From positions 1-52,756 of IMG/VR virus record IMGVR_UViG_3300017766_001124: 52,756 nt of DNA. One strand, written 5' to 3'. Positions 16,862 through 45,304 of the stretch are shown here, one piece after another. Source of the stretch: a virus (taxonomy: Duplodnaviria > Caudoviricetes). The position numbers were made by a program, and so were the translations under genes. How positions within the stretch are numbered: position 1 is the stretch's first letter; each line of letters starts with the position of its first letter. The notes under the pieces are model-generated. The model did not search any database. It saw only the letters and a list, made by a program, of their open reading frames with translations, and was not told the DNA's origin.

Positions 16862-19720
16862 CTACGGCCTGTCGCCAGTTTCAAATTCATAGATACCCTG
16901 CGCAACCCTTCTTATGCGGTCAGGCGGGATCTTATCGTTAGGTCCAATCCCAGCCTTATCCGCTACGTGCTTGACGTAGTTGTTAAAGGCCTCAGGATCA
17001 TTGGCAGCGTTTGTTGGGCTCAGCCAGCCTTCGATCAGAGAGTAGGGCGTGTTCTGACCCTTTTTGATCTTGTTGATGATCAGGGTCATCTTAGCTTCTT
17101 TGCCAGCCGACATAGTGTCAAACTTGGCAAACGGGATGCCCTGCTCATTCTTGCCCTCACCCGGCCCAATGTAACCCGGCAGCTTTTTGGTCCATGAAGA
17201 AACGATCAGGTTGCCGGGGTTGTTGTTACGTTCCCCAACAGAGGCTTTGCCATCGCTAAAAGGGGCGTTGCCTTCTTCAGCTTCCTCCTGTGCAGCAGGG
17301 AGAGCAGGCGTAAGGCCATTGGCCTCTTGCGGCGCTTCTTCTACTAGAGGCTTCTCGATGCTGACAGATGGCGGCATTTGCAGAGAGCGATCTTCGACAG
17401 CGGCTGGGGCAGTTGCGCCAACGGCTGCCGCACCACGTCCTGAAAGAACGTCTTCAACCTTAATGTTACGAGCAGCAATCGCCTCGGCTTGGCGATATTC
17501 TTCCAACAAACCACGAAGCTTTTGAGGATCGGAAGTGCGCAAAGCTTGAGCAAGCTTGGTGTAGACCTTTTCGCTCATTTTAGAGCCCGGAACTTTGCTG
17601 GCCAGCCACATGCCAAGGCGCGCCAAGTTACCCGGCGATGTCGGGTTCAGAACCGCGCTCACAACCGTATCAAAATCGCCCGTCGCAATTGAGTTATCCA
17701 GCGAAGCGAGATCCTGCGCAAGTGGCGTGGTGGGCGAGCCGCCAAGCGTCTTTGAGGTGCGCTCAAACAGCTCCGCCTCACGCTTCAATGCCGCATCAAG
17801 CACACGGAACTGCTCTTTTGGCAAAACCGTGCGAAGCTTTTCACGATTACCCTTTGCCATGATTTCCTTGGCAAAGTTGCGAGAGCGTGCCGTGTCTTCA
17901 GTTGGCTCAATAATTCTCTGCATCAGGCCAGTACGGAAGGCCTCCTTTTCAGCCTCCGACATCTTGCCAAACGCTTTCTGGACCTCTTGCGGGCGCACAG
18001 AGCGAGACATTGCGTCTCGACCATTTTCTAGCGCTTTGCGCACCTCAAGGTCGCCAGCATACATCCTGCGTGCCTGACGATACTCAGGGACAATCTTGTC
18101 CAGACGGTCAAGGATTTGGTCGCGCGTATCTTTCAATTTCTCCGCACGACCACCATCACCAGCCTTGTACAGGGCAGTAATTTCTTCATCCAATACGCGC
18201 TTGATGCTGTGCAATGTGCGGACATCAGGAACAATATCACCCGTCGGACGCAGACCAACCAAAGTGCCAGCCTCATCAAGGACAGGCTCCATCTCCATCT
18301 TGAGCATATATTTAGACGGATCTTCGCCACGCGCAGCCGCATTATTTGCAGCTATATCAGCGGTTTCCTTAGCTTTCTTCAGTGCGCCAGCAACGCCGGG
18401 GTTCTTCAAAAGCGTCTGGATCGTCGGATCTTTGACCGCGCCAAAGGCAAAAGATTTCTCATAACCCTCTTCACCGATTTTGCGCAGACGGTCAGTGACA
18501 GCATCTTGTGCCGTAAAATAATCCTGAGCATCAGGGAACGCAGCCCGGACTTGCTCAGTAAAGCGCTCAGGGGCCTCACTTTGACGTTCCGCAAGAGTGC
18601 GAACCAATTCCTCGCGGCCCTCATTTGGCTTGGAAATGACAGCCTTCGTCAGGCGAGCCATTTCTGGTGTGGTCATGCCTAATTCCATAGGAACGCCGTA
18701 CTTCTGACCGCGCTGCATCATGAATGCAATTGTCTCTGGAGATGTGTCACCTAATGCGCGATTGATCTGCTCAGCCGCACCTACAGTAACACGATCAGGC
18801 GTTGGCCCAGCACGGCCAAGTCGGCGTAAAACCGCATCCTTACCACGCATCGCCAAACGTCCACCGCCCGGCAACAGGCTACTTACGAGACCACCCGTAA
18901 TACCTTGCTCAAGAGCCTCAGTGGGGATGTCTCCCATGGTATTCGCAGCGCCAATACCCGAAACAACGCCAGATGACGCACCAACAAGGCCTGATCTCAG
19001 CGCAGCGCTTCCAATCTTGCCAATCCCAGTCGCAGCCTGATAGCCACGACCAATAAAGCCAAGGCCGGGAATAAATGTGCCTGCAAGGCCACCACCCAGT
19101 TCTAGGCCAAGCGCCTCTCCCGGATTGGCCTTAGCCCATTTGTCGTAGTCGTAATTGATCTGGCCTTTAATCTTATAGTATTCGTCTGCGCTAAGCTCAC
19201 CAGATAGGAGCATGCGCGTTGCCGCTTCAGCTTCGTCTGCAAAGTCAAAGAGAGCACCCTTAGCAAAGGCTCGCGCACGATTAGCGCCCTCGCCAGCGGT
19301 GCCCATTTCCGTCACGATAGGCTTTGTAGGCGCAACCGGGATGTTAACGTCCTCATAGGCGACACGCGGGTTGAGCATGCCGCTCTTTTTGTAAAAGTCT
19401 TCGATTTGTTGGACGTTTGATACATTCATGCCATACTTGGAGGCCAAGCTTTGCAATTGAGATGCGTCAAAGCTCTTATTTGCAGCAGCGCTTTTGATGT
19501 AAGCAGAAACCTCAGCCTCATAAGCCTTGCGCTTATCGGCATCCGTCATGGGAGTGGCAACAGGCGCTTCAGGAGCGCCCTCACCCTTAGCAGGCTCACC
19601 TGTAGAAGGCGCAGAAGAAATGCCGAGATGTTTCTTAACAGTCTGGTCTATCACCTCATCCGGCGTCCCCTCTTCAAACTCTAGAAACGTGCCGTCAGGG
19701 AGTTGCGCTTTTATGGTCAT
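16862..19720 (-). CDS. Large ejection (internal virion) protein with C-terminal lysozyme-like domain
   Basis: QLPDG..LEFEEGTPDEVI N-terminus, Gly/Ala hydrophobic segments, C-terminal GERNNNPGNL...FAKFDT...G...YVKHV...ETG. Confidence 0.7.
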   Translation of the reverse strand: MTIKAQLPDGTFLEFEEGTPDEVIDQTVKKHLGISSAPSTGEPAKGEGAPEAPVATPMTDADKRKAYEAEVSAYIKSAAANKSFDASQLQSLASKYGMNVSNVQQIEDFYKKSGMLNPRVAYEDVNIPVAPTKPIVTEMGTAGEGANRARAFAKGALFDFADEAEAATRMLLSGELSADEYYKIKGQINYDYDKWAKANPGEALGLELGGGLAGTFIPGLGFIGRGYQAATGIGKIGSAALRSGLVGASSGVVSGIGAANTMGDIPTEALEQGITGGLVSSLLPGGGRLAMRGKDAVLRRLGRAGPTPDRVTVGAAEQINRALGDTSPETIAFMMQRGQKYGVPMELGMTTPEMARLTKAVISKPNEGREELVRTLAERQSEAPERFTEQVRAAFPDAQDYFTAQDAVTDRLRKIGEEGYEKSFAFGAVKDPTIQTLLKNPGVAGALKKAKETADIAANNAAARGEDPSKYMLKMEMEPVLDEAGTLVGLRPTGDIVPDVRTLHSIKRVLDEEITALYKAGDGGRAEKLKDTRDQILDRLDKIVPEYRQARRMYAGDLEVRKALENGRDAMSRSVRPQEVQKAFGKMSEAEKEAFRTGLMQRIIEPTEDTARSRNFAKEIMAKGNREKLRTVLPKEQFRVLDAALKREAELFERTSKTLGGSPTTPLAQDLASLDNSIATGDFDTVVSAVLNPTSPGNLARLGMWLASKVPGSKMSEKVYTKLAQALRTSDPQKLRGLLEEYRQAEAIAARNIKVEDVLSGRGAAAVGATAPAAVEDRSLQMPPSVSIEKPLVEEAPQEANGLTPALPAAQEEAEEGNAPFSDGKASVGERNNNPGNLIVSSWTKKLPGYIGPGEGKNEQGIPFAKFDTMSAGKEAKMTLIINKIKKGQNTPYSLIEGWLSPTNAANDPEAFNNYVKHVADKAGIGPNDKIPPDRIRRVAQGIYEFETGDRP

Positions 19721-20942: not shown

Positions 20943-22133
20943 TCAGATGATACCCGCGCCCTTGAGTTCTTTAATCAACGCAGCGCCACCGGTCAGGGCA
21001 CCCGCCACCTGAGAAGCCGTTGATGCTGGGTATTCAGGCTTATAGCTTGTCGGCTGGATGCCGTATTCCTGCGTGGCCGTCGGAACAGCGCTAGAAACAC
21101 CCTGCAACGCGCCAACCATCTGGCTGATCTGCTGCTGCGGGTAAGCCTGACGACGCTCCCATTCAGCACGGGCAAAGTCGAGGTTCTGCTGTGCCAAAGC
21201 TTGCTGCTGTGCGCCGATCTGAGACAAGGCACCTGCACCAGTGAGGCCTTGGGTCTGCTGCTGCTGTGCGAGATCTGCCATCTGAGCAGCCGCTGCCATC
21301 TGGTTTGCGGTGTCCTGACCGTAATAGCCAGCCGCCTGACCAGTGATGTCAGCCAATTGCCGACCAGCCGCCGACAGCGCACCCTGCTGTTGGAAGCCAA
21401 GGCTGCCAGCGGTCTGAGCCAATTCAGCTTGACGCGCAAGATCGGCCTGAGCCAAGCCTGCGGCCTGACCATAGCCCTGCTGCAATGCCTGCGCCTGCTG
21501 GGCCGAGACGCCCTCCATCGTGTCACGCAAAGCCCGACCGATCAGTTCAGCCTGACGTGTGCCGCCAAACTGGCCTGCGCTAATCATCTTGTCGCTGATT
21601 GCCGGAAGGAGCTGCTCTTGCAGCGTACGTGCGCCCAGTGCGCCAATCCGGCCGACAACAGCCTCCTGATACGGGTTCATGTACTGGTTGATGTTCTGCA
21701 CTGCCGTCTGGCCAGCCTGCCCCAGATAGGGCTGCGCCATATTCAAACCAGTGGGTTGCGTTCCTTGCAGCGTAAACTGCTTAGCTTCAGCCAGTCCCGG
21801 CTGAGCCATGCCGGCGGTAGAGCGGCCAAAAACGTCCTGCGTCTTGGTCGTGGCTGTATTCAGTGCAGGCTGATAACCAAACGCATTCTGACGGGTCGCC
21901 TGAAAGCCAGCCTGTTGATCGGGAGCAAAGTCAGCAAAGCGCGGGATCGGCTTGCCAGTGACGTCTACATATTCCTGAAAAGGCTTAGCAGCTACAGCGC
22001 GCTGGTTGGACAGAACGTCCATTGCATAGTTGGTGTACCAATCAGGCAAGATCGTCTGCTTGGTAACGTCTGTCAGCGCAGAGCCAGCGGGGATCTCCTG
22101 CCCTTCAGCCATGAATGAAGTGGTGTCAACCAT
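20943..22133 (-). CDS. Putative ejection/DNA-transfer protein
   Basis: Gln/Ala-rich, QYMNPYQEAV, AGQFGGTRQ motifs typical of podoviral ejection proteins. Confidence 0.7.
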   Translation of the reverse strand: MVDTTSFMAEGQEIPAGSALTDVTKQTILPDWYTNYAMDVLSNQRAVAAKPFQEYVDVTGKPIPRFADFAPDQQAGFQATRQNAFGYQPALNTATTKTQDVFGRSTAGMAQPGLAEAKQFTLQGTQPTGLNMAQPYLGQAGQTAVQNINQYMNPYQEAVVGRIGALGARTLQEQLLPAISDKMISAGQFGGTRQAELIGRALRDTMEGVSAQQAQALQQGYGQAAGLAQADLARQAELAQTAGSLGFQQQGALSAAGRQLADITGQAAGYYGQDTANQMAAAAQMADLAQQQQTQGLTGAGALSQIGAQQQALAQQNLDFARAEWERRQAYPQQQISQMVGALQGVSSAVPTATQEYGIQPTSYKPEYPASTASQVAGALTGGAALIKELKGAGII

Positions 22134-24295
22134 TAGATACGTCCTCCAGACATGTACTTCTCAGGGCTCTTAGCATTCACGCTGAACTTACCCTTTGCCA
22201 AGTTCTTACCCTTATGTTTACGGACTTTCACCCGCAATTCATCAAGCTTCTTTGCGCCAGCCTTAGACGATCCATCGCCAAGTAAGGCCACCGTTTCAGC
22301 ATCAATAACATATTCGCCATCGGAAAGCACCGCAGGAATGTCATCTGATCGGCCAGTGCCGGGGCCTTCCACAGCGAAGCTTTCACGCGATGAGCCACGG
22401 GAATAACCCATGTCACCACCATGAGACATACCCACGGGTTCCTCAGGGATGCCAGAAACAGCGCGGAAGGTTTCCTCACCCAGTGTACCGGGGCCATAGC
22501 CAGCATAGGGAGACGTGGCACGGCTGAGATCAGCACCGGTCGGCATATCCATCGCCGGACCCATACCGTAGCGATACCAGTCGGTGACTGGGCGTGCAGC
22601 AAGTGTGCGATCCGCAGCAGTGCCACCAACGCCGCCGACCGTAAACGACCCAGAAGATCCCGCCGTGGGAAGCTTGGCAGAGAAAATGGGGTTGAGAGCA
22701 TTTTTTGAGGAATAGCGCCCAGCGGAACCACCCCCGCCACCGCCGCCGGCAATGTTGCCGAGCAGGCCGACGCCCAGACCGGCGAGCCTTAGATAGTCGG
22801 CGATCTTTTCTGCGTCGGACTTCGGCTCAACGACCTTGTCGGTGAGTTTTGGCCCCGTGCCCGCCAGCGTGCTGGCTACGTCAAGGTTCACGGCGAGGGG
22901 CTTGTCCTCGAGGTCAAGGACTTCTTTCTTCGGCGCAGTCACCTTAATCTCGTCGCTAAGGCCAGCGTTAAAGTCCGGCACAACTGGGTTGATGCGGATA
23001 TTGTCATCTTTGACCGCTGCATCGGCCTTCTGCGCGTTGACGAGGATTTCGGAAGGCATTGTCGTACCGGGTAAGACGGCGAGAGACTTATCCTCGGTCG
23101 TCGGTACTTCCTTCTGTGCGTTGACAAGGATTTCGGACGGCGTCGGCCCGTCACCCGAATAACGCGCAGTCGGGATTACGTTGCTGCCGCCAGCAAAAGT
23201 TGGCCCTGACAGTCGAGTGCCGGTGACGACCATGGCGGGGTCTACAACAGACGATACGGGGGCAGACGGGTACGCAGGTGGCGTGCCGTTGGCCCACGGA
23301 GCGGGCAGCGCGCCGTCTGGGCTGAATGGAATGAGTTTCCCGTTGCTGTCAAAAATACCCGTTTTTGGATCGTTGTACGCCGCGCTGACAAGATCAGGGG
23401 CAAACGCGCCCGCTTCGATAATGCTGTTATCAAGACGAGCCATCGCGTTGGAAACATTTCGGTTGATGGTGTCGTTTAGGCTTGGCCCAAGCAACTGGCT
23501 GGCGGCGTACTGTCCTGCGCCTGCGGTAACGCCTCCAATCAGCGAGTTTTTAAGGCTTTGGCCTGTCGCGAGGCCACCGCCCGTCGCGCCGATACCCGTG
23601 CCGACTGCCCTTGCGGCGTCCGCAGACAAGCCAAGTTTGCTGAGTGGGCCAGTTGCTCCACCGAGAAGCTGCCCACCGGCAGCCGTTGCGCCACCCAAGA
23701 CAGCGCCCTTGAGGATGTTCTGGCCCTTCAGGCCGGCGCTTACGCCTCCGACGCCTGCGCCCAGTCCGATGGTGCCCAACGTACCCAAGCCTGCCAACGG
23801 AGCGCTTGCGCCCATCGTAAGTGGGATCATGGCGATAGGAAGCGCCGTGCCGAGTACGTTACCGATCTCGCCCAGTGTGCTCCTGTTCGCCTTTTCGTGC
23901 GCAACCGTTGCGTAGCCAGACATGCCCGGCGTCGCTGCCTGAATGTCCCAGTTGGCCTTGCGGCCACCCGTGTCGGTCAGACCCTGCGCCAGATCGCGCG
24001 CCGTCTGAGCCGCCTCATAGCCAACGCCCTCGAACACGACTTGGCCTGTGGCGTTGTCTACAAGGCGCACGGACGTCTGCGGGCTTACCGCAAATGTGTT
24101 GCTTGTGCTGGAAATTTGGGAGGTCGGGTTGCCCTTGTTTGACACAGGTGCCGCGAACGTCTGCGTCGGGCCGCCGTAGCGACCGCCAATCAGATCGTAC
24201 GTGCCGAGATCCGCAAGGGTCGTGCCCTGCGTGGCAGCGCTAAAGGCCGTGTTGCCGTAGCCAGAGCCAGTAATATCTTCGTACGGGTCGGCCAT
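22133..24295 (-). CDS. Putative ejection protein with TonB-box-like repeats
   Basis: Start MADPYE; Gly-rich hydrophobic segments; C-terminal GPGTGRSDDIPAVLSDGEYVIDAETV. Confidence 0.65.
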   Translation of the reverse strand: MADPYEDITGSGYGNTAFSAATQGTTLADLGTYDLIGGRYGGPTQTFAAPVSNKGNPTSQISSTSNTFAVSPQTSVRLVDNATGQVVFEGVGYEAAQTARDLAQGLTDTGGRKANWDIQAATPGMSGYATVAHEKANRSTLGEIGNVLGTALPIAMIPLTMGASAPLAGLGTLGTIGLGAGVGGVSAGLKGQNILKGAVLGGATAAGGQLLGGATGPLSKLGLSADAARAVGTGIGATGGGLATGQSLKNSLIGGVTAGAGQYAASQLLGPSLNDTINRNVSNAMARLDNSIIEAGAFAPDLVSAAYNDPKTGIFDSNGKLIPFSPDGALPAPWANGTPPAYPSAPVSSVVDPAMVVTGTRLSGPTFAGGSNVIPTARYSGDGPTPSEILVNAQKEVPTTEDKSLAVLPGTTMPSEILVNAQKADAAVKDDNIRINPVVPDFNAGLSDEIKVTAPKKEVLDLEDKPLAVNLDVASTLAGTGPKLTDKVVEPKSDAEKIADYLRLAGLGVGLLGNIAGGGGGGGSAGRYSSKNALNPIFSAKLPTAGSSGSFTVGGVGGTAADRTLAARPVTDWYRYGMGPAMDMPTGADLSRATSPYAGYGPGTLGEETFRAVSGIPEEPVGMSHGGDMGYSRGSSRESFAVEGPGTGRSDDIPAVLSDGEYVIDAETVALLGDGSSKAGAKKLDELRVKVRKHKGKNLAKGKFSVNAKSPEKYMSGGRI

Positions 24296-35188: not shown

Positions 35189-38100
35189 TTAGTAAGGTGT
35201 GAAAGCCTGTGTAGGCGCTGTAAAGTTGGCGGTGTAGCGGGCAACGCCCTTGGTGATGCGGAGGTCATCGAGGTAGCCGACAATCGGGAAGCTACCACTT
35301 AGGCGACTTCCGATTTCCCAGCGCGCAGTATCGTAGGTTGCAGTGTCAGTGTATGTTGATCCAACCTGCGTACCGTTCACAAACAACCGAGTGCTGCTGC
35401 CGCTTTTACAGGCGGCGATATGCTGCCAAGTGTTTGCGGTCAGCGCGCCAGTGCCTGTGATGTTGGGAACGCCTGAGCCCACAGTGACCCAAGAAATGCT
35501 AGTTCCTGAGCTGTAAATTTCCATTTGCAACACGGTGTTTGCTGCGTTGAGCGAGTCAAAATACACCTTGGTTCCACTCGCATCCGTGTACGCCCAGAAC
35601 TCAACCGTCCAGTTGCCCGATCCCAATACAAGAGGCTGGGAATTTGGAATAAATAGACAGCCGGTAGGGATGTAGATCGAAGACCCGCCGAACTTGCTCT
35701 GCACAGTGCTGACCTGCGCGCTGCCGAAAGTCTCCATGTCGTTGATCGCCGTTGCGTCGTATGCGCCAGCGTTCATGCCGTTCGCAAGCAGGACGGTGGC
35801 GGGGGTCGGTGTCAGAGGGGCGCTTGGCGGCGTGAATGTTGCCGTGTAAATCGCGCTGCCTTTGATAATCCGCACGTCAGACACATACCCCTGCATCGGC
35901 GAATAACCGCCAACAGAAGTGGGGCCGTTGCCAATATAGACCGTAGGCGTTGCTGTGGCCCACATCCTGCTCGACGTTGTGTAGGTTGCGGTCTGCTTAA
36001 CGCCGTTGATGTACATGGAGAACACGTTGCTGGCTCGAGTAACCGCAACGTGGTACCATGTGTTAAGTTTATAGGTATCGTTTGCGTTTACGACCGTACC
36101 GCCAAAATCATAGCAAGCGAAGGTGATCTTCTGCGTTCCAGTGTCGAACAGAAGATTTGTCGCCCCCGCAGACGCCCATGTGTTGTTGAAGTTAACGATG
36201 CGCGAGTAGTTTTGGACCGACGTTGCATACACCCAGCATTCCAAGGTGAAGTCACCGCCGCCGATGTCTGTCACATTGGTCGCGGGGACAGTCAGGATGG
36301 TCTCAAGCGCCCCAGTGTTAGTGCTGCTAAAGTACATCGAACCGCCGTTGCTGGCAGTCGTGGACGTGTAGAAGGGATCGAATGACTGTATTTTTGTATC
36401 GCCGTTGACCGTGATAGATAGGGCATTGCTGCTGGTATCAATGAAGCGGGCTGACTGACAGGCAAGGAAACTCGTCCCGCTAACTGCGGTAAGAGGTGAG
36501 GTAGGTGGCGTGAAGGCAGCGGTGTAAAGGGCGGTACCTTTTACGATGCGAACATTGCTCAGGTAGCCGGTTACGTAGGCACTATCTCGCTGGTTGTACC
36601 CAATTCTCAGATCGTTAGACGACGTGCAAGTGCCGGAAACGGTAGAGGATGCCCCAAGAACACCATCGATGAATATGCGGGCGGTGCCACTGGCACGCGC
36701 CACTGCGACGTGATGCCAAGCGCCATCATTTACGTTAACAGAAGCGCGGAACTCATCAAATCCACCTCCGTTACCGCGAGCGAAGTAGACCTCGTTGCCG
36801 CTATTGAAGCGATTGCCGATGCGCCACGTTCCGGCCTCAGTGCCTGTCAGCAGCGTGCCAATCGTCTGGGTGTACGACCCAGAGGCAGCGGCATTGATCC
36901 AGAACTCAACCGTAAAGTCGCCTGTGCCAAGCTGGAAAGCAGCGTTATTTGCTACGGATAGATAGTCACCAGACCCATCAAAATACCCGCTATAATACCC
37001 CGCCTGAAACGGATTGCTCCCCGTGACAGTGGTGTTTCCAGCAATCGTGACGGTGGCATTATTGGTGCTATTGTCCGTGAACGCTGCGTTCTGGCAGGTG
37101 AGCAACCCCGTCCCACTAATAGCTGTCAAAGGCGAAGTCGGCGGCGTAAATGCACCAGTGTAGACAGCGGTGCCCTTTACGGCGCGAAGGTTGCTAATGT
37201 ACCCGTTAAACTCGCCAGCGCCGATGCTATCGCCAGCAGTTCCGACCCACCAGCTATTAGCAGTACCTGTAACCGTTGCGGAACTTGTTGCTGTTCCATT
37301 AGCTACGCCGTTAACGTATAGTGTGATCGTTGACCCGCTGCGCACCAACGCAATATGCGCCCAAGCATTATACACAATGCTATCGGTGCTTTGAATGACA
37401 GGGAAAGAGCCGTTAAACGACACATTATATTTGGCCGTGTTTGCAGACCCGTGACCAGCGAAGATGGCAAAACCGCCGTTGGTAGTGTAGGTGCTGTAAT
37501 TATTAACAATACATGGAAAGCTAGTTACGCGAGCAATTGGGAACACCCAGCACTCAACAGTAAAATCTCCGGGGAACTGAAGCCCAGTTGAGTATGGGTA
37601 AGCAAGATAATCCCCAGTCCCATCAAAATACCCAGACCAATACTGAATGTCGCTCTGGTTGTAGGTGATGCCGGGATAGGCAGGAGCAAACGGGCTGAAG
37701 CTCTGGACCTTGGTGTCGCCGTTAGCGGTGATCGTGAAGTTGTTCGTGCTGGCATCGCGGAAGCGGTTGCTCTGACAGGTGAGCAGCGATGTGCCACTGA
37801 TCGCAGTGAGTGGCGATGTGGGGGGTGTGAAGGCAGCAGTGTAGACGGCTGTTCCGTTCACGATGCGATAGTTGCTTAGATTGCCGTTAAAAAAGTAATC
37901 AAGCGCCTGCCCAGCGCCGACTTTCAGTGCTGTGTTGCTTAGTGTACGGCTTACACTGGTCGGGCTTATGTCTTGCGCGCCGTTAATGTATGTAGTCCAA
38001 GATCCGCTAGAACGAACCAACGCAAAGTGCGTCCACGTATTAACAGACACATTGATGGTAGGCGTCCCGATGAAGCCGTTGCTATATATGGAAACCTTGT

Positions 38101-38599
38101 TTGGATATGAAGCGTGGTTGTAGATAACGCAAAACCCAGCAGCATCATTTGTCGATGCGCGGGTATCGTAAAAATACTGGTACTGCCCAGTTCCGGTCGA
38201 GTATATCCAGCACTCAAACGTAAAGTCACCCGTACTTAAAGCCGTCGGTGATACAGTCAGGTAATCCCCAGACCCATCAAAATAGTTCGACCAGTCCGCC
38301 CCGTAAGGCGTGAACGACCCCTGTGTGGTGGTGCTGCCACGACTGATTGGGTTGAACGCGCCACTGCTGTCAACGAACAGGTTGTTGTTAGCGTTGCCCA
38401 GAGCGGTCGTTGAGAGCAGCAGGGAGACGTAAGGAAAGTACGTATCAGGAGCTTGGATGTTCGCGTTGGGCCACACGCCCTGCTTAACCCAATAGGCAAC
38501 ATCATCCATGCGCCAGACGCCCGGAGCGCGGCCAGCAGTAGTCGGCCCCGTCGGGGTCGCTGGAGACTTAGTGATGATGTTTGCCGGATACCTGCTCAT
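35189..38599 (-). CDS. Multi-LamG (concanavalin A-like) receptor-binding protein
   Basis: Five LamG-like units (DFT.E.W, W.H.A..R.G, GY.S..RI.KG.A.YT..FTPP), repeated YFDGSGDYL. Confidence 0.85.
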   Translation of the reverse strand: MSRYPANIITKSPATPTGPTTAGRAPGVWRMDDVAYWVKQGVWPNANIQAPDTYFPYVSLLLSTTALGNANNNLFVDSSGAFNPISRGSTTTQGSFTPYGADWSNYFDGSGDYLTVSPTALSTGDFTFECWIYSTGTGQYQYFYDTRASTNDAAGFCVIYNHASYPNKVSIYSNGFIGTPTINVSVNTWTHFALVRSSGSWTTYINGAQDISPTSVSRTLSNTALKVGAGQALDYFFNGNLSNYRIVNGTAVYTAAFTPPTSPLTAISGTSLLTCQSNRFRDASTNNFTITANGDTKVQSFSPFAPAYPGITYNQSDIQYWSGYFDGTGDYLAYPYSTGLQFPGDFTVECWVFPIARVTSFPCIVNNYSTYTTNGGFAIFAGHGSANTAKYNVSFNGSFPVIQSTDSIVYNAWAHIALVRSGSTITLYVNGVANGTATSSATVTGTANSWWVGTAGDSIGAGEFNGYISNLRAVKGTAVYTGAFTPPTSPLTAISGTGLLTCQNAAFTDNSTNNATVTIAGNTTVTGSNPFQAGYYSGYFDGSGDYLSVANNAAFQLGTGDFTVEFWINAAASGSYTQTIGTLLTGTEAGTWRIGNRFNSGNEVYFARGNGGGFDEFRASVNVNDGAWHHVAVARASGTARIFIDGVLGASSTVSGTCTSSNDLRIGYNQRDSAYVTGYLSNVRIVKGTALYTAAFTPPTSPLTAVSGTSFLACQSARFIDTSSNALSITVNGDTKIQSFDPFYTSTTASNGGSMYFSSTNTGALETILTVPATNVTDIGGGDFTLECWVYATSVQNYSRIVNFNNTWASAGATNLLFDTGTQKITFACYDFGGTVVNANDTYKLNTWYHVAVTRASNVFSMYINGVKQTATYTTSSRMWATATPTVYIGNGPTSVGGYSPMQGYVSDVRIIKGSAIYTATFTPPSAPLTPTPATVLLANGMNAGAYDATAINDMETFGSAQVSTVQSKFGGSSIYIPTGCLFIPNSQPLVLGSGNWTVEFWAYTDASGTKVYFDSLNAANTVLQMEIYSSGTSISWVTVGSGVPNITGTGALTANTWQHIAACKSGSSTRLFVNGTQVGSTYTDTATYDTARWEIGSRLSGSFPIVGYLDDLRITKGVARYTANFTAPTQAFTPY

Positions 38600-44341: not shown

Positions 44342-45304
44342 TTAGCATGCTCCGCCGTAATACTTGGCCATCAAGCCGCCCATAGCCATGCCTGTTGGCG
44401 CTGGCTGCGGAGCTGGCTGCTGTGGCACGTTAGACAGCGACAGCGTCCGAGGCACGTTGCTCAGCGACAAGCCCTGCGGCTGCTGCATCGCATTGGCGAT
44501 GCTCTGTGGCTGCATAGGCACGTTGCTCAGCGACAGACCTTGGGGCTGCTGCATCGGAGGCGGCGTCACAGCCATAGGTGGTGTTACATCTATAGGACGT
44601 CGTTCTACTGGCTTAAACTGATACAGATAGTCCTTTGCCGCCTGCAAAGCCTGCTGATGCTGCTCTGGCGTTGAATTCATGTCAGTCGTCAGCTTAACAA
44701 GATCGCCACGATATTTCGCAAGCTGCATAGGGTCTACGCCACTTGAGAAGATGCCGCCTTGGAACTGCTTGTTCATTTCACCGGCATAGGTGTTGATTTC
44801 ACGCAAAGCAGCGTTGCGATCAAACGATGGGGCGGGGCGCGAAGGTCCGGGATTAAACACATTATCCGTGGGTATCGGACGCACAATCTCTGGCGTCTGC
44901 GGCATCGGCCTCTGCGGCGTCACCACAATCTCTGGCTGCTCAGCCACAGTCAGGCCGCCCTGCGCAGGCATCGGCTGCGCGGGCATCCCCATGGACGCAG
45001 GAGCAGGCATAGGAGTACCCACAGGGACGCTACGATTTGACGAGTTGTTTATGCTCATGCCCTGCTTATGCAGCGTATTCAGCGCATTAACCAATGCGTC
45101 TCGGCGCTGATCGTCTGTCGCAGACATGTTTAACTGCAATTCTCGCAGAGGTGCCTGCATTTCTCGCAGCTTATCAGGCGTGAAGCCGCGATCCAGCATT
45201 CCCTGTTGGCCGCCGTACTGATTGTACAGTTTTGAAAAGTATTCGTTAAACTCGCGCAATGGATCAGTTGGCGGCCGAACGTAACCGGGATTTGGTGTGG
45301 ACAT
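44342..45304 (-). CDS. Pro/Gln/Met-rich putative capsid-internal protein
   Basis: Two similar helical units, LSLSNVP repeats, C-terminal MAMGG. Confidence 0.6.
   Translation of the reverse strand: MSTPNPGYVRPPTDPLREFNEYFSKLYNQYGGQQGMLDRGFTPDKLREMQAPLRELQLNMSATDDQRRDALVNALNTLHKQGMSINNSSNRSVPVGTPMPAPASMGMPAQPMPAQGGLTVAEQPEIVVTPQRPMPQTPEIVRPIPTDNVFNPGPSRPAPSFDRNAALREINTYAGEMNKQFQGGIFSSGVDPMQLAKYRGDLVKLTTDMNSTPEQHQQALQAAKDYLYQFKPVERRPIDVTPPMAVTPPPMQQPQGLSLSNVPMQPQSIANAMQQPQGLSLSNVPRTLSLSNVPQQPAPQPAPTGMAMGGLMAKYYGGAC

Follow-up and report, generated by a model that had tools for sequence, protein, structure and literature searches.

Why would a phage protein carry, four times over, a short peptide that resembles the TonB box of bacterial transporters? 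The question is raised by P0001, a minus-strand gene of a 52,756 bp stretch of DNA (the window) that constitutes a single IMG/VR virus record, estimated to be 93% complete, with 54-59% G+C. Its product is a putative ejection or internal virion protein, and the four peptides, here called boxes, lie in its central linker. The answer proposed here is mimicry: the boxes may bind the TonB of the host and have a role in delivery. Judging from comparisons of sequence, we place the probability of this at about one half.

The original prediction placed four such peptides in a Pro-rich linker of this protein. They are indeed present in the translation, and the edges first given for them lie 0-3 nucleotides (nt) inside the spans measured here (Table 1). 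The linker itself is only moderately Pro-rich, with 10% Pro over amino acids (aa) 346-490 and 16% over aa 291-345. Counted from core to core, the boxes stand 34, 28 and 33 aa apart. When scored with a matrix that was built from the protein family without P0001, boxes 2, 3 and 4 reach 15.9, 19.1 and 23.1 bits. V357 of box 1 and I450 and V452 of box 4 are invariant in an alignment of 30 sequences (A1). At the level of DNA, boxes 2 and 3 form a direct repeat (23026-23057 and 23110-23141; 32 nt, 91% identical, 84 nt apart), and after both box 2 and box 4 there is another short repeat, which codes for EDK-x-LAV.

Short peptides in a linker might, of course, be accidents. The boxes of P0001 are not. 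Their core was described by the pattern [IVLM][IVLKTRM]V[TNS][AG], which was derived from the four boxes of the original prediction. P0001 holds four matches to it; the mean in shuffled versions is 0.21, and none of 5000 shuffles reaches four. Across the window, which was scanned as 170 stop-to-stop frames of at least 100 aa (33,900 aa), the matrix built without P0001 finds five matches of at least 10 bits, and four of these are the P0001 boxes. The family is large, with 5903 matches at E <= 0.001 in a 50%-identity library. Its 120 best homologues yield 267 matches to the pattern, against 20.2 +/- 4.4 in shuffles; at least one box is found in 108 of the 120, and at least two in 87. Thus, a scan with TonB-box patterns in homologues, which had been proposed as the check, finds the motifs both conserved and enriched.

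The same motif appears when no pattern is supplied. This was examined in 132 of 150 representatives at 50% identity, chosen for a length above 400 aa and stripped of their conserved last 240 aa. IVVT is the most enriched 4-mer among them, found in 55 proteins where 0.94 are expected, followed by DIVV (52 against 0.62), VVTG (50 against 2.8) and EIVV (40 against 0.48). The place of the boxes is also regular: 338 of 366 boxes, from 155 proteins, are bounded by the first hydrophobic block on one side and by the last poly-Gly run on the other. From box to box, the family spacing has a median of 53.5 aa, and its commonest bin is 30-39 aa.

What is not chance need not bind anything, of course. The boxes might be sites for a head-maturation protease, or they might reflect neutral repeat expansion in a low-complexity linker. 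Repeats do expand here: boxes 2 and 3 arose by a recent duplication of DNA, and whole units have multiplied in tandem in many relatives. Box-bearing units have expanded to three copies of 37 aa in P0036 and to four of 30 aa in P0134, and P0037 has seven matches to the pattern plus an eighth copy, with Lys for Asn, that is visible in the sequence. Further, acidic residues precede a hydrophobic core in some phage protease sites. However, the motif comes back in linkers that otherwise defy alignment, in proteins down to ~35-40% identity, and after the linker has been replaced; neutral drift is rejected on these grounds. As for a protease, the residues conserved most strongly are those after the acidic pair (Val, Thr, Gly/Ala, and Lys/Arg at +6), which is unlike sites that are defined by their N-terminal side, and Glu stands at -1 in 77 of the 267 boxes. 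Boxes without a binding role are thus very unlikely.

Replacement of the linker can be followed in two IMG/VR loci, L066 and L067. Here, the structural neighbours are 90-93% identical to those of the window and the downstream gene 76-78%, while the P0001 homologue is 46-50% identical. By region, the identity is 93-97% in the C-terminal 100 aa, 37-44% in the N-terminal domain, and 22-27% in the linker. The rewritten linkers still hold four and three boxes. As a whole, P0001 is a mosaic relative to these two loci, with its C-terminal third 76-97% identical, its N-terminal two thirds 22-47% identical, and a breakpoint near aa 490. This suggests that a cassette of N-terminal domain and linker may be exchanged between phages.

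The next question is whether the repeated motif is like a TonB box in particular. Transporters for this comparison came from two genomes: of 47 Plug-domain matches, 30 with their loci fetched were used, 15 from G001 and 15 from G003. G001 belongs to the Caulobacteraceae (it is titled Caulobacter sp., and its TonB is closest to Phenylobacterium entries); G003 is titled Pseudomonadota bacterium. Both were reached via related loci, and neither need be the host of this phage. Their transporters begin with peptides such as VEAVVVTGSRI and VGEIVVTAQKR in G001, and AQRVEITGSSI in G003.

In the forward direction, the 11-column matrix of the phage boxes was run over each of the 30 transporters. In 21 of them, its best match lies 11-24 aa ahead of the Plug domain, a placement expected by chance ~6% of the time (a 40-residue target in a protein of ~700 residues). 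By genome, the count is 14/15 in G001 and 7/15 in G003. The best match exceeds those of all 100 shuffles in 12 of the 30, and 11 of these 12 are at the TonB box. In some G003 transporters (loci L033-L061), the phage matrix prefers a strand of the plug domain, such as GTLVLVNGRRI or YTLILVNGERA; with Asn after Val, these strands resemble boxes 2 and 3 (ILVNAQK).

A second test scored only positions that the pattern does not cover: acidic residues at -2 and -1, and Lys or Arg at +6. Three transporters with no core near the plug (L054, L055, L059) were set aside. Judged by their flanks alone, 13 of the 27 remaining real boxes rank among the top 10% of positions in their own protein (Fisher combined p 2.8e-9), and these are 12 of 14 in G001 and 1 of 13 in G003. 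This, in turn, means that the phage motif is written in the G001 dialect, with its acidic flank and Lys/Arg at +6, and not in the Gln/Arg-flanked dialect of G003.

In the reverse direction, a matrix of 14 real G001 boxes places box 1 first (10.6 bits) and box 4 second (8.4 bits) among all positions of P0001. Applied to 259 proteins of the family, it gives 373 matches of at least 8 bits, against 19.4 +/- 4.3 in shuffles, with at least one match in 183 of the 259. Thus, the likeness to alphaproteobacterial TonB boxes that was claimed from the first holds with matrices in both directions and in flanks that were not selected. By these measures of sequence, the repeated motif is statistically indistinguishable from alphaproteobacterial TonB boxes, with boxes 2 and 3 the weaker cases.

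The agreement runs position by position. The boxes of transporters (BtuB, FhuA, FepA, and the 30 examined here) share with those of P0001 an acidic residue, an acidic residue or Ala, Ile or Val, a variable residue, Val, Thr, Ala or Gly, any residue, and Lys or Arg; the variable position at +1 and the setting in an unstructured segment are likewise common to both. The differences are of architecture. Whereas transporters have one N-terminal box before the plug, the P0001 family has 1-7 internal copies in a long linker. P0001 has neither plug nor barrel (no Plug match was found in the window), and its likeness to transporters does not go beyond 12 box columns. A longer likeness, extending to the first plug strand, was considered and rejected: hhalign aligned those 12 columns alone (P 3e-4). 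Two further measures left it unsupported. When the downstream part alone was scored, it reached 3.2, with 20 column-permuted controls at 2.4 +/- 0.2. A regular expression of the 'P..V.V' type matched 69 of 270 units (58 +/- 5.8 in shuffles), and no more than 2 of 27 transporters.

Might the boxes bind some other partner? They might be beta-strand motifs for a protein other than TonB, serving self-association of the conduit, docking to the portal or tail channel, or contact with another periplasmic protein; the likeness to TonB boxes would then be convergence on a good edge-strand sequence. The core, Ile/Val-x-Val-Thr-Gly, is after all generic in its tendency to form strands. Against this, the match extends to unselected flanks and follows one dialect, that of G001 and not of G003, and the phage matrix singles out the TonB box in nearly every Caulobacteraceae transporter. 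The boxes lie in predicted disorder, and the window encodes no TonB_C-like internal partner: a search for a phage-encoded TonB-like protein gave no TonB_C match at E <= 1. Evidence from the relatives, given below, also bears on this alternative, and taken together we regard it as possible, if on balance unlikely.

TolA is a more specific candidate, being the target of filamentous-phage g3p and of group A colicins. The C-terminal domains of TolA and TonB have related folds, and both bind by strand addition. Further, g3p with its N1 domain sets a precedent: here a virion protein of a phage makes contact, during entry, with the periplasmic domain of TolA, an inner-membrane protein linked to the proton-motive force. 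N1 is, of course, a folded TolA-binding domain and not an array of linear motifs, and the TolA box of the TolB type is unlike the boxes of P0001. In E. coli, the N-terminus of TolB is the site of the TolA-binding strand. When the TolB proteins of G001 and G003 are scored with the matrix, their best values are -2.5 and 1.7, at places other than the N-terminus; the boxes of transporters reach as much as 21.5. TolA is thus the least likely of the partners and roles weighed here.

Structure prediction was also tried for the TonB complex. The C-terminal domain of a stand-in TonB, encoded in the exbB-exbD-tonB operon of G001 (P0261 aa 138-240; alignment A2, 50 rows), was co-folded with box 4 (P0001 aa 435-470, alignment A1). 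The scores, from a run without controls, were 0.08 and 0.04, with the mark at 0.32; by the rule of the tool, they count neither for nor against binding.

Where the boxes stand in the protein bears on what they could do. The coding span of P0001 is 22136-24295 on the minus strand, and the 720-aa form is on record in the protein collection. An AlphaFold2 model built on A1 gives a folded N-terminal domain, with block values of the predicted local distance difference test (pLDDT) of 81-94 over aa 41-120 and 74-78 over aa 121-140. Helices follow at 169-189, 194-211, 225-243 and 248-268 (block pLDDT 58-82 across aa 169-268), and the Kyte-Doolittle value in a 19-aa window exceeds 1.0 at aa 139-191 and 194-212. 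The chain at aa 323-569 has pLDDT below 50 and no secondary structure. Within it, hydropathy again exceeds 1.0 at aa 498-522, where a helix is modelled at 494-507. By predicted disorder and hydropathy together, the boxes thus stand in a disordered linker that has a hydrophobic, membrane-type block on either side.

Table 1. The boxes of P0001, the parts of the protein, and neighbouring genes, in positions of the window.
Feature	Position	Strand	Description
Box 1, DPAMVVTGTRL	23210..23242	-	aa 352-362 of P0001
Box 2, PSEILVNAQKE	23108..23140	-	aa 386-396; Asn in place of the usual Thr
Box 3, PSEILVNAQKA	23024..23056	-	aa 414-424; duplicate of box 2
Box 4, SDEIKVTAPKK	22925..22957	-	aa 447-457; most canonical
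P0001 gene	22133..24295	-	encodes 720 aa (span includes the stop codon); box array in a putative internal virion or ejection protein
N-terminal folded domain	23891..24163	-	aa 45-135; beta-sheet and one helix (AlphaFold2)
First hydrophobic Gly/Ala-rich block	23660..23881	-	aa 139-212, helices on to ~aa 268; candidate membrane-inserting segment
Second hydrophobic segment, then poly-Gly run	22721..22804	-	aa 498-525 of P0001
C-terminal conserved domain	22136..22435	-	aa 621-720; holds IPAVLSDGEYVIDAETVALLG motif; similar in part to tape-measure proteins; shared with RW gp066c
Upstream neighbour, virion structural protein, 542 aa	24525..26153	-	phrog_3287, E 9e-38; 59% to RW gp068c
Downstream neighbour, 396 aa, 'DNA ejection protein'-like	20943..22133	-	phrog_4287, E 3e-6; 48% to RW gp065c
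952-aa protein, endolysin/tape-measure-like C-terminal part	16862..19720	-	phrog_5880, E 7e-54; phrog_873 'endolysin', E 4.7e-12, aa 809-950

The C-terminal domain holds the majority of the invariant columns of A1, and the C-terminal part is weakly modelled. By tblastn, aa 563-720 are 50% identical to the corresponding proteins of the Caulobacter phages RW, GB2A, RLK and KcrB, and aa 641-718 have weaker matches to tape-measure proteins of Arthrobacter phages. One of the latter, which matches the C-terminal domain and comes from a phage with a Gram-positive host, has 0 boxes in 1351 aa, although this control is a single case. A shorter form of the family, ~506-532 aa where complete, occurs at nine loci (L146, L148, L150, L153, L158, L161, L170, L172, L173). 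It keeps the N-terminal domain, the hydrophobic block and 3-4 canonical boxes, and lacks the tape-measure-like DGEYV C-terminal domain.

Comparison with known families gave little. No Pfam family was found for P0001; its matches to tape-measure families of the PHROG collection are limited to aa 638-685 (E 7.6e-6 and 2.5e-5). Foldseek with the P0001 model against the PDB gave 0 matches at E <= 0.001, the A1 profile gave no match to PDB sequences at E <= 1, and the ESM Atlas gave no usable match for aa 340-470. A long helical tape-measure ruler was considered and set aside, since the AlphaFold2 model has no long coiled stretch: 476 of 720 residues have pLDDT below 50, and the helices lie in aa 140-306, with a few short ones elsewhere.

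The neighbourhood is more telling. On the minus strand, the order by PHROG assignment is a tail-fibre-like protein of 620 aa, the structural protein of 542 aa, P0001, and proteins of 396, 408 and 952 aa. Phage RW keeps this order (the neighbouring proteins share 59%, 59% and 48% identity with those of the window), and so do 9 of 10 further related loci that were compared. The lake phage DSL-LC04 matches it partly, and has its P0001 homologue between a 'stabilization protein' and a 'DNA transfer protein', two designations that are customary in P22-type short-tailed phages. The view that P0001 is an internal or ejection-type protein is therefore borne out by an ejection-protein-like cassette whose order is kept in RW and relatives. 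P0001 is called ejection-type by position and architecture and not by homology, as neither Pfam nor the sequences and folds of the PDB gave a match. With the ejection proteins of podoviruses (T7 gp14-16, P22 gp7/gp20/gp16), it shares a structural module, ejection-like and lysin-like neighbours, and membrane-type segments; homology to a solved or Pfam-described ejection protein was not detected. P0001 would thus be packaged in the virion and ejected from it.

RW is the reference point for much of this. It infects Caulobacter vibrioides CB15 (PMC11053796). According to the same source, RW, RLK, KcrB and GB2A form the proposed genus Riverwalkvirus, infecting C. vibrioides, and 'podovirus' appears in the title of the first description of RW as it is cited there. 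RW gp066c, annotated as a 'hypothetical protein' (in GB2A, 'tail length tape measure protein'), is like P0001 in gene position and architecture, and 50% identical in its C-terminal 160 aa. It differs in its length of 580 aa and in having three degenerate boxes, with Thr, Asn or Lys followed by Pro. The window has no tRNA genes, and megablast of 20 kb of it against phage records gave no match. The best explanation is that it comes from a podovirus-like freshwater phage related to RW.

Binding to TonB does not by itself imply delivery. The boxes could instead occupy or divert TonB, blocking competing phages and bacteriocins or shutting down the transporters of the host. The sequence evidence would be the same, and several boxes per molecule would raise avidity. 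However, an array inside a structural protein that has membrane-type segments and a tape-measure-like domain suits delivery better, and the copies delivered by virions are probably few relative to cellular TonB. Nor was a separate soluble box-bearing protein identified, save for a single box in P0382. For these reasons, occupation of TonB is highly unlikely. P0382 itself (44345-45304, minus strand) is a Pro/Met/Gln-rich protein of 320 aa without a PHROG match. Its box-like peptide, QPEIVVTPQRP, scores 17.0 bits and is the sole match of at least 10 bits in the window outside P0001.

Several observations weigh against TonB binding with a delivery role, and they should be set beside the evidence above. 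First, the tests on the core are not fully independent, because the pattern came from the boxes of the original prediction; the 4-mer, flank-only and reverse tests are the answer to this. Second, in the reverse test boxes 2 and 3 rank fourth and fifth in P0001 with 4.2 bits, a low score that comes from Asn at a position where Thr is near-invariant. Third, within the clade, conservation does not separate boxes from linker. Among the nine closest relatives, identity is 0.57 in the boxes and 0.53 in the rest of the linker; box by box, it is 0.72 and 0.76 for boxes 1 and 4, and 0.40 and 0.38 for boxes 2 and 3. The case for selection therefore rests on the wide family.

In that wide family, not every member conforms. 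The boxes of RW, the sole cultured relative among relatives otherwise metagenomic, are degenerate (VDEIVVTPSQP, VDPVVVNPPQG, VDELVIKPPTT): Pro takes the place that Ala or Gly holds in real boxes. Endings of the same Thr/Lys/Glu-Pro kind are seen in L005, L007 and L008, which are RW-like loci of high GC. In a listing of boxes by locus, from which 16 of 100 loci dropped out as having no open reading frame under the C-terminal pattern, the seven lowest-GC loci have no boxes. L125 and L127 have none or one. A sister type, recognized by the N-terminal ..MLAHINPxE.., lacks boxes in 6/6 proteins. DSL-LC04 (L063 3066-5345, plus strand, 'tail tape measure protein') has, in place of boxes, five tandem copies of an unrelated unit, YAGMDLSSAQGTLGGPS, at the same position in the linker. 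With some relatives box-free, docking to TonB cannot be essential to the core job of the wider family. L141 has three to four copies of a unit containing GQQVTVSNKTDK. Twenty loci (L001-L020) stand in metagenome bins titled from Bacteroidia and Chloroflexota to Bathyarchaeia and Saccharibacteria; several of the contigs are about 50-63 kb, near the size of a phage genome. Many of these are presumably mis-binned phage contigs, and the labels were not used to assign hosts.

Some of these points speak for a partner other than TonB. A similar motif could be favoured by some other partner that accepts an added beta-strand, as the core is of a generic strand-forming kind. RW-like members keep acidic-Ile-Val-Val and swap the Thr-Ala/Gly that follows for Thr/Lys/Glu-Pro, and the different repeat of DSL-LC04, in the same position, allows that the linker may hold repeats of any kind. 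Many units also have, by eye, a second short hydrophobic stretch 8-15 aa downstream of the box, although this second element has no statistical support.

How, then, would TonB-box mimicry work in a phage? P0001 would leave the capsid through the tail, and its unfolded linker would enter the periplasm, an exposure to which the flanking hydrophobic blocks and the ejection cassette point. Each box could then pair as a beta-strand with the C-terminal domain of the host TonB, as the boxes of transporters and group B colicins do. For this there are structural precedents: the BtuB-TonB and FhuA-TonB complexes have been solved, and boxes of transporters and colicins add a strand to the C-terminal domain of TonB. 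The nascent ejection conduit would in this way be docked to TonB-ExbBD in the inner membrane, or be pulled by its proton-driven motor. What the sequences show are the motifs, their conservation, their statistical likeness to real TonB boxes, the predicted disorder and the gene context; the presence in the virion, the exposure in the periplasm, the binding to TonB and any coupling to energy are inferred.

A functional parallel is with the group B colicins, klebicins and pyocins. These too are foreign proteins that come in from outside, and in the periplasm they expose a TonB box within a disordered segment, as P0001 would do. KlebC and colicins 5 and 10 carry TonB boxes, according to one review (PMC11658791). 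The bacteriocins are soluble toxins with a single N-terminal box and domains for receptor binding and killing, whereas P0001 has hydrophobic blocks, an array of boxes and a tape-measure-like domain, with no sequence homology between the two. P0001 was also considered as a colicin or pyocin translocation domain, and does not qualify, with its boxes internal and no colicin or pyocin Pfam domain.

The full texts searched, those of openly accessible papers without supplements, gave no description of a TonB box in a phage virion, ejection, internal virion or tape-measure protein. Papers on T5 and FhuA do pair 'TonB box' with 'tape measure protein', and the box there is that of the receptor. The passages on phages examined in the review cited above (PMC11658791) treat phages solely as users of transporters. 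TonB-box mimicry by a phage virion protein is thus probably new, while parasitism of TonB is already known for bacteriocins.

The observations can be joined in a bolder reading, which as a whole is distinctly unlikely. Here, TonB-ExbBD would act as a winch. Successive boxes, ~30-50 residues apart, would be grabbed in turn by TonB, and the proton-motive force would reel the unfolded ejection protein from the capsid and over the periplasm together with the rest of the ejectosome and the leading end of the DNA. The dialect of the flanks, acidic or Gln/Arg, would be a periplasmic key to host range, exchanged through swaps of the N-terminal two thirds. Terminal boxes on baseplate hub and tail-tube-family proteins would be the same device in contractile-tailed phages.

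Such terminal boxes came from an exact DNA scan of IMG/VR for Asp-Glu-Ile-Val-Val-Thr-Gly-x-Arg, which returned 29 loci. About 18 belong to the P0001 family, and one (L152) is a genuine transporter. Elsewhere, a baseplate hub (phrog_177, E 3e-100) is extended at its N-terminus by the box, two tail-tube-family proteins (phrog_45) bear it at one end, N- or C-terminal, and a tape-measure-like protein of 1239 aa holds it internally; these hub, tail-tube and tape-measure-like loci are L154 8433-9674 (+), L164 2513-3454 (-), L155 2181-2897 (-) and L162 6841-10557 (+). Since a rough estimate gives ~10 chance matches for the pattern, the boxes outside the family may be coincidence. In the window itself, a further protein of 1136 aa (35189-38599, minus strand) has five Laminin_G_3 / concanavalin-like repeats (Pfam E 5e-92) and is probably a fibre or adhesin.

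How the ejection proteins and DNA of short-tailed phages cross the periplasm, and what share the energy of the membrane has in this, are long-standing open questions. A conserved array of putative TonB-box mimics in a protein of the ejection cassette offers a concrete and testable link to a known motor of the host. The experiments are within reach, because RW is cultured on CB15, a genetic model host. Should the flanks of the boxes track the TonB boxes of the host itself, the motif could help to assign hosts to uncultured phages. And if mimicry is true, TonB parasitism would extend from bacteriocins to the virion proteins of phages.

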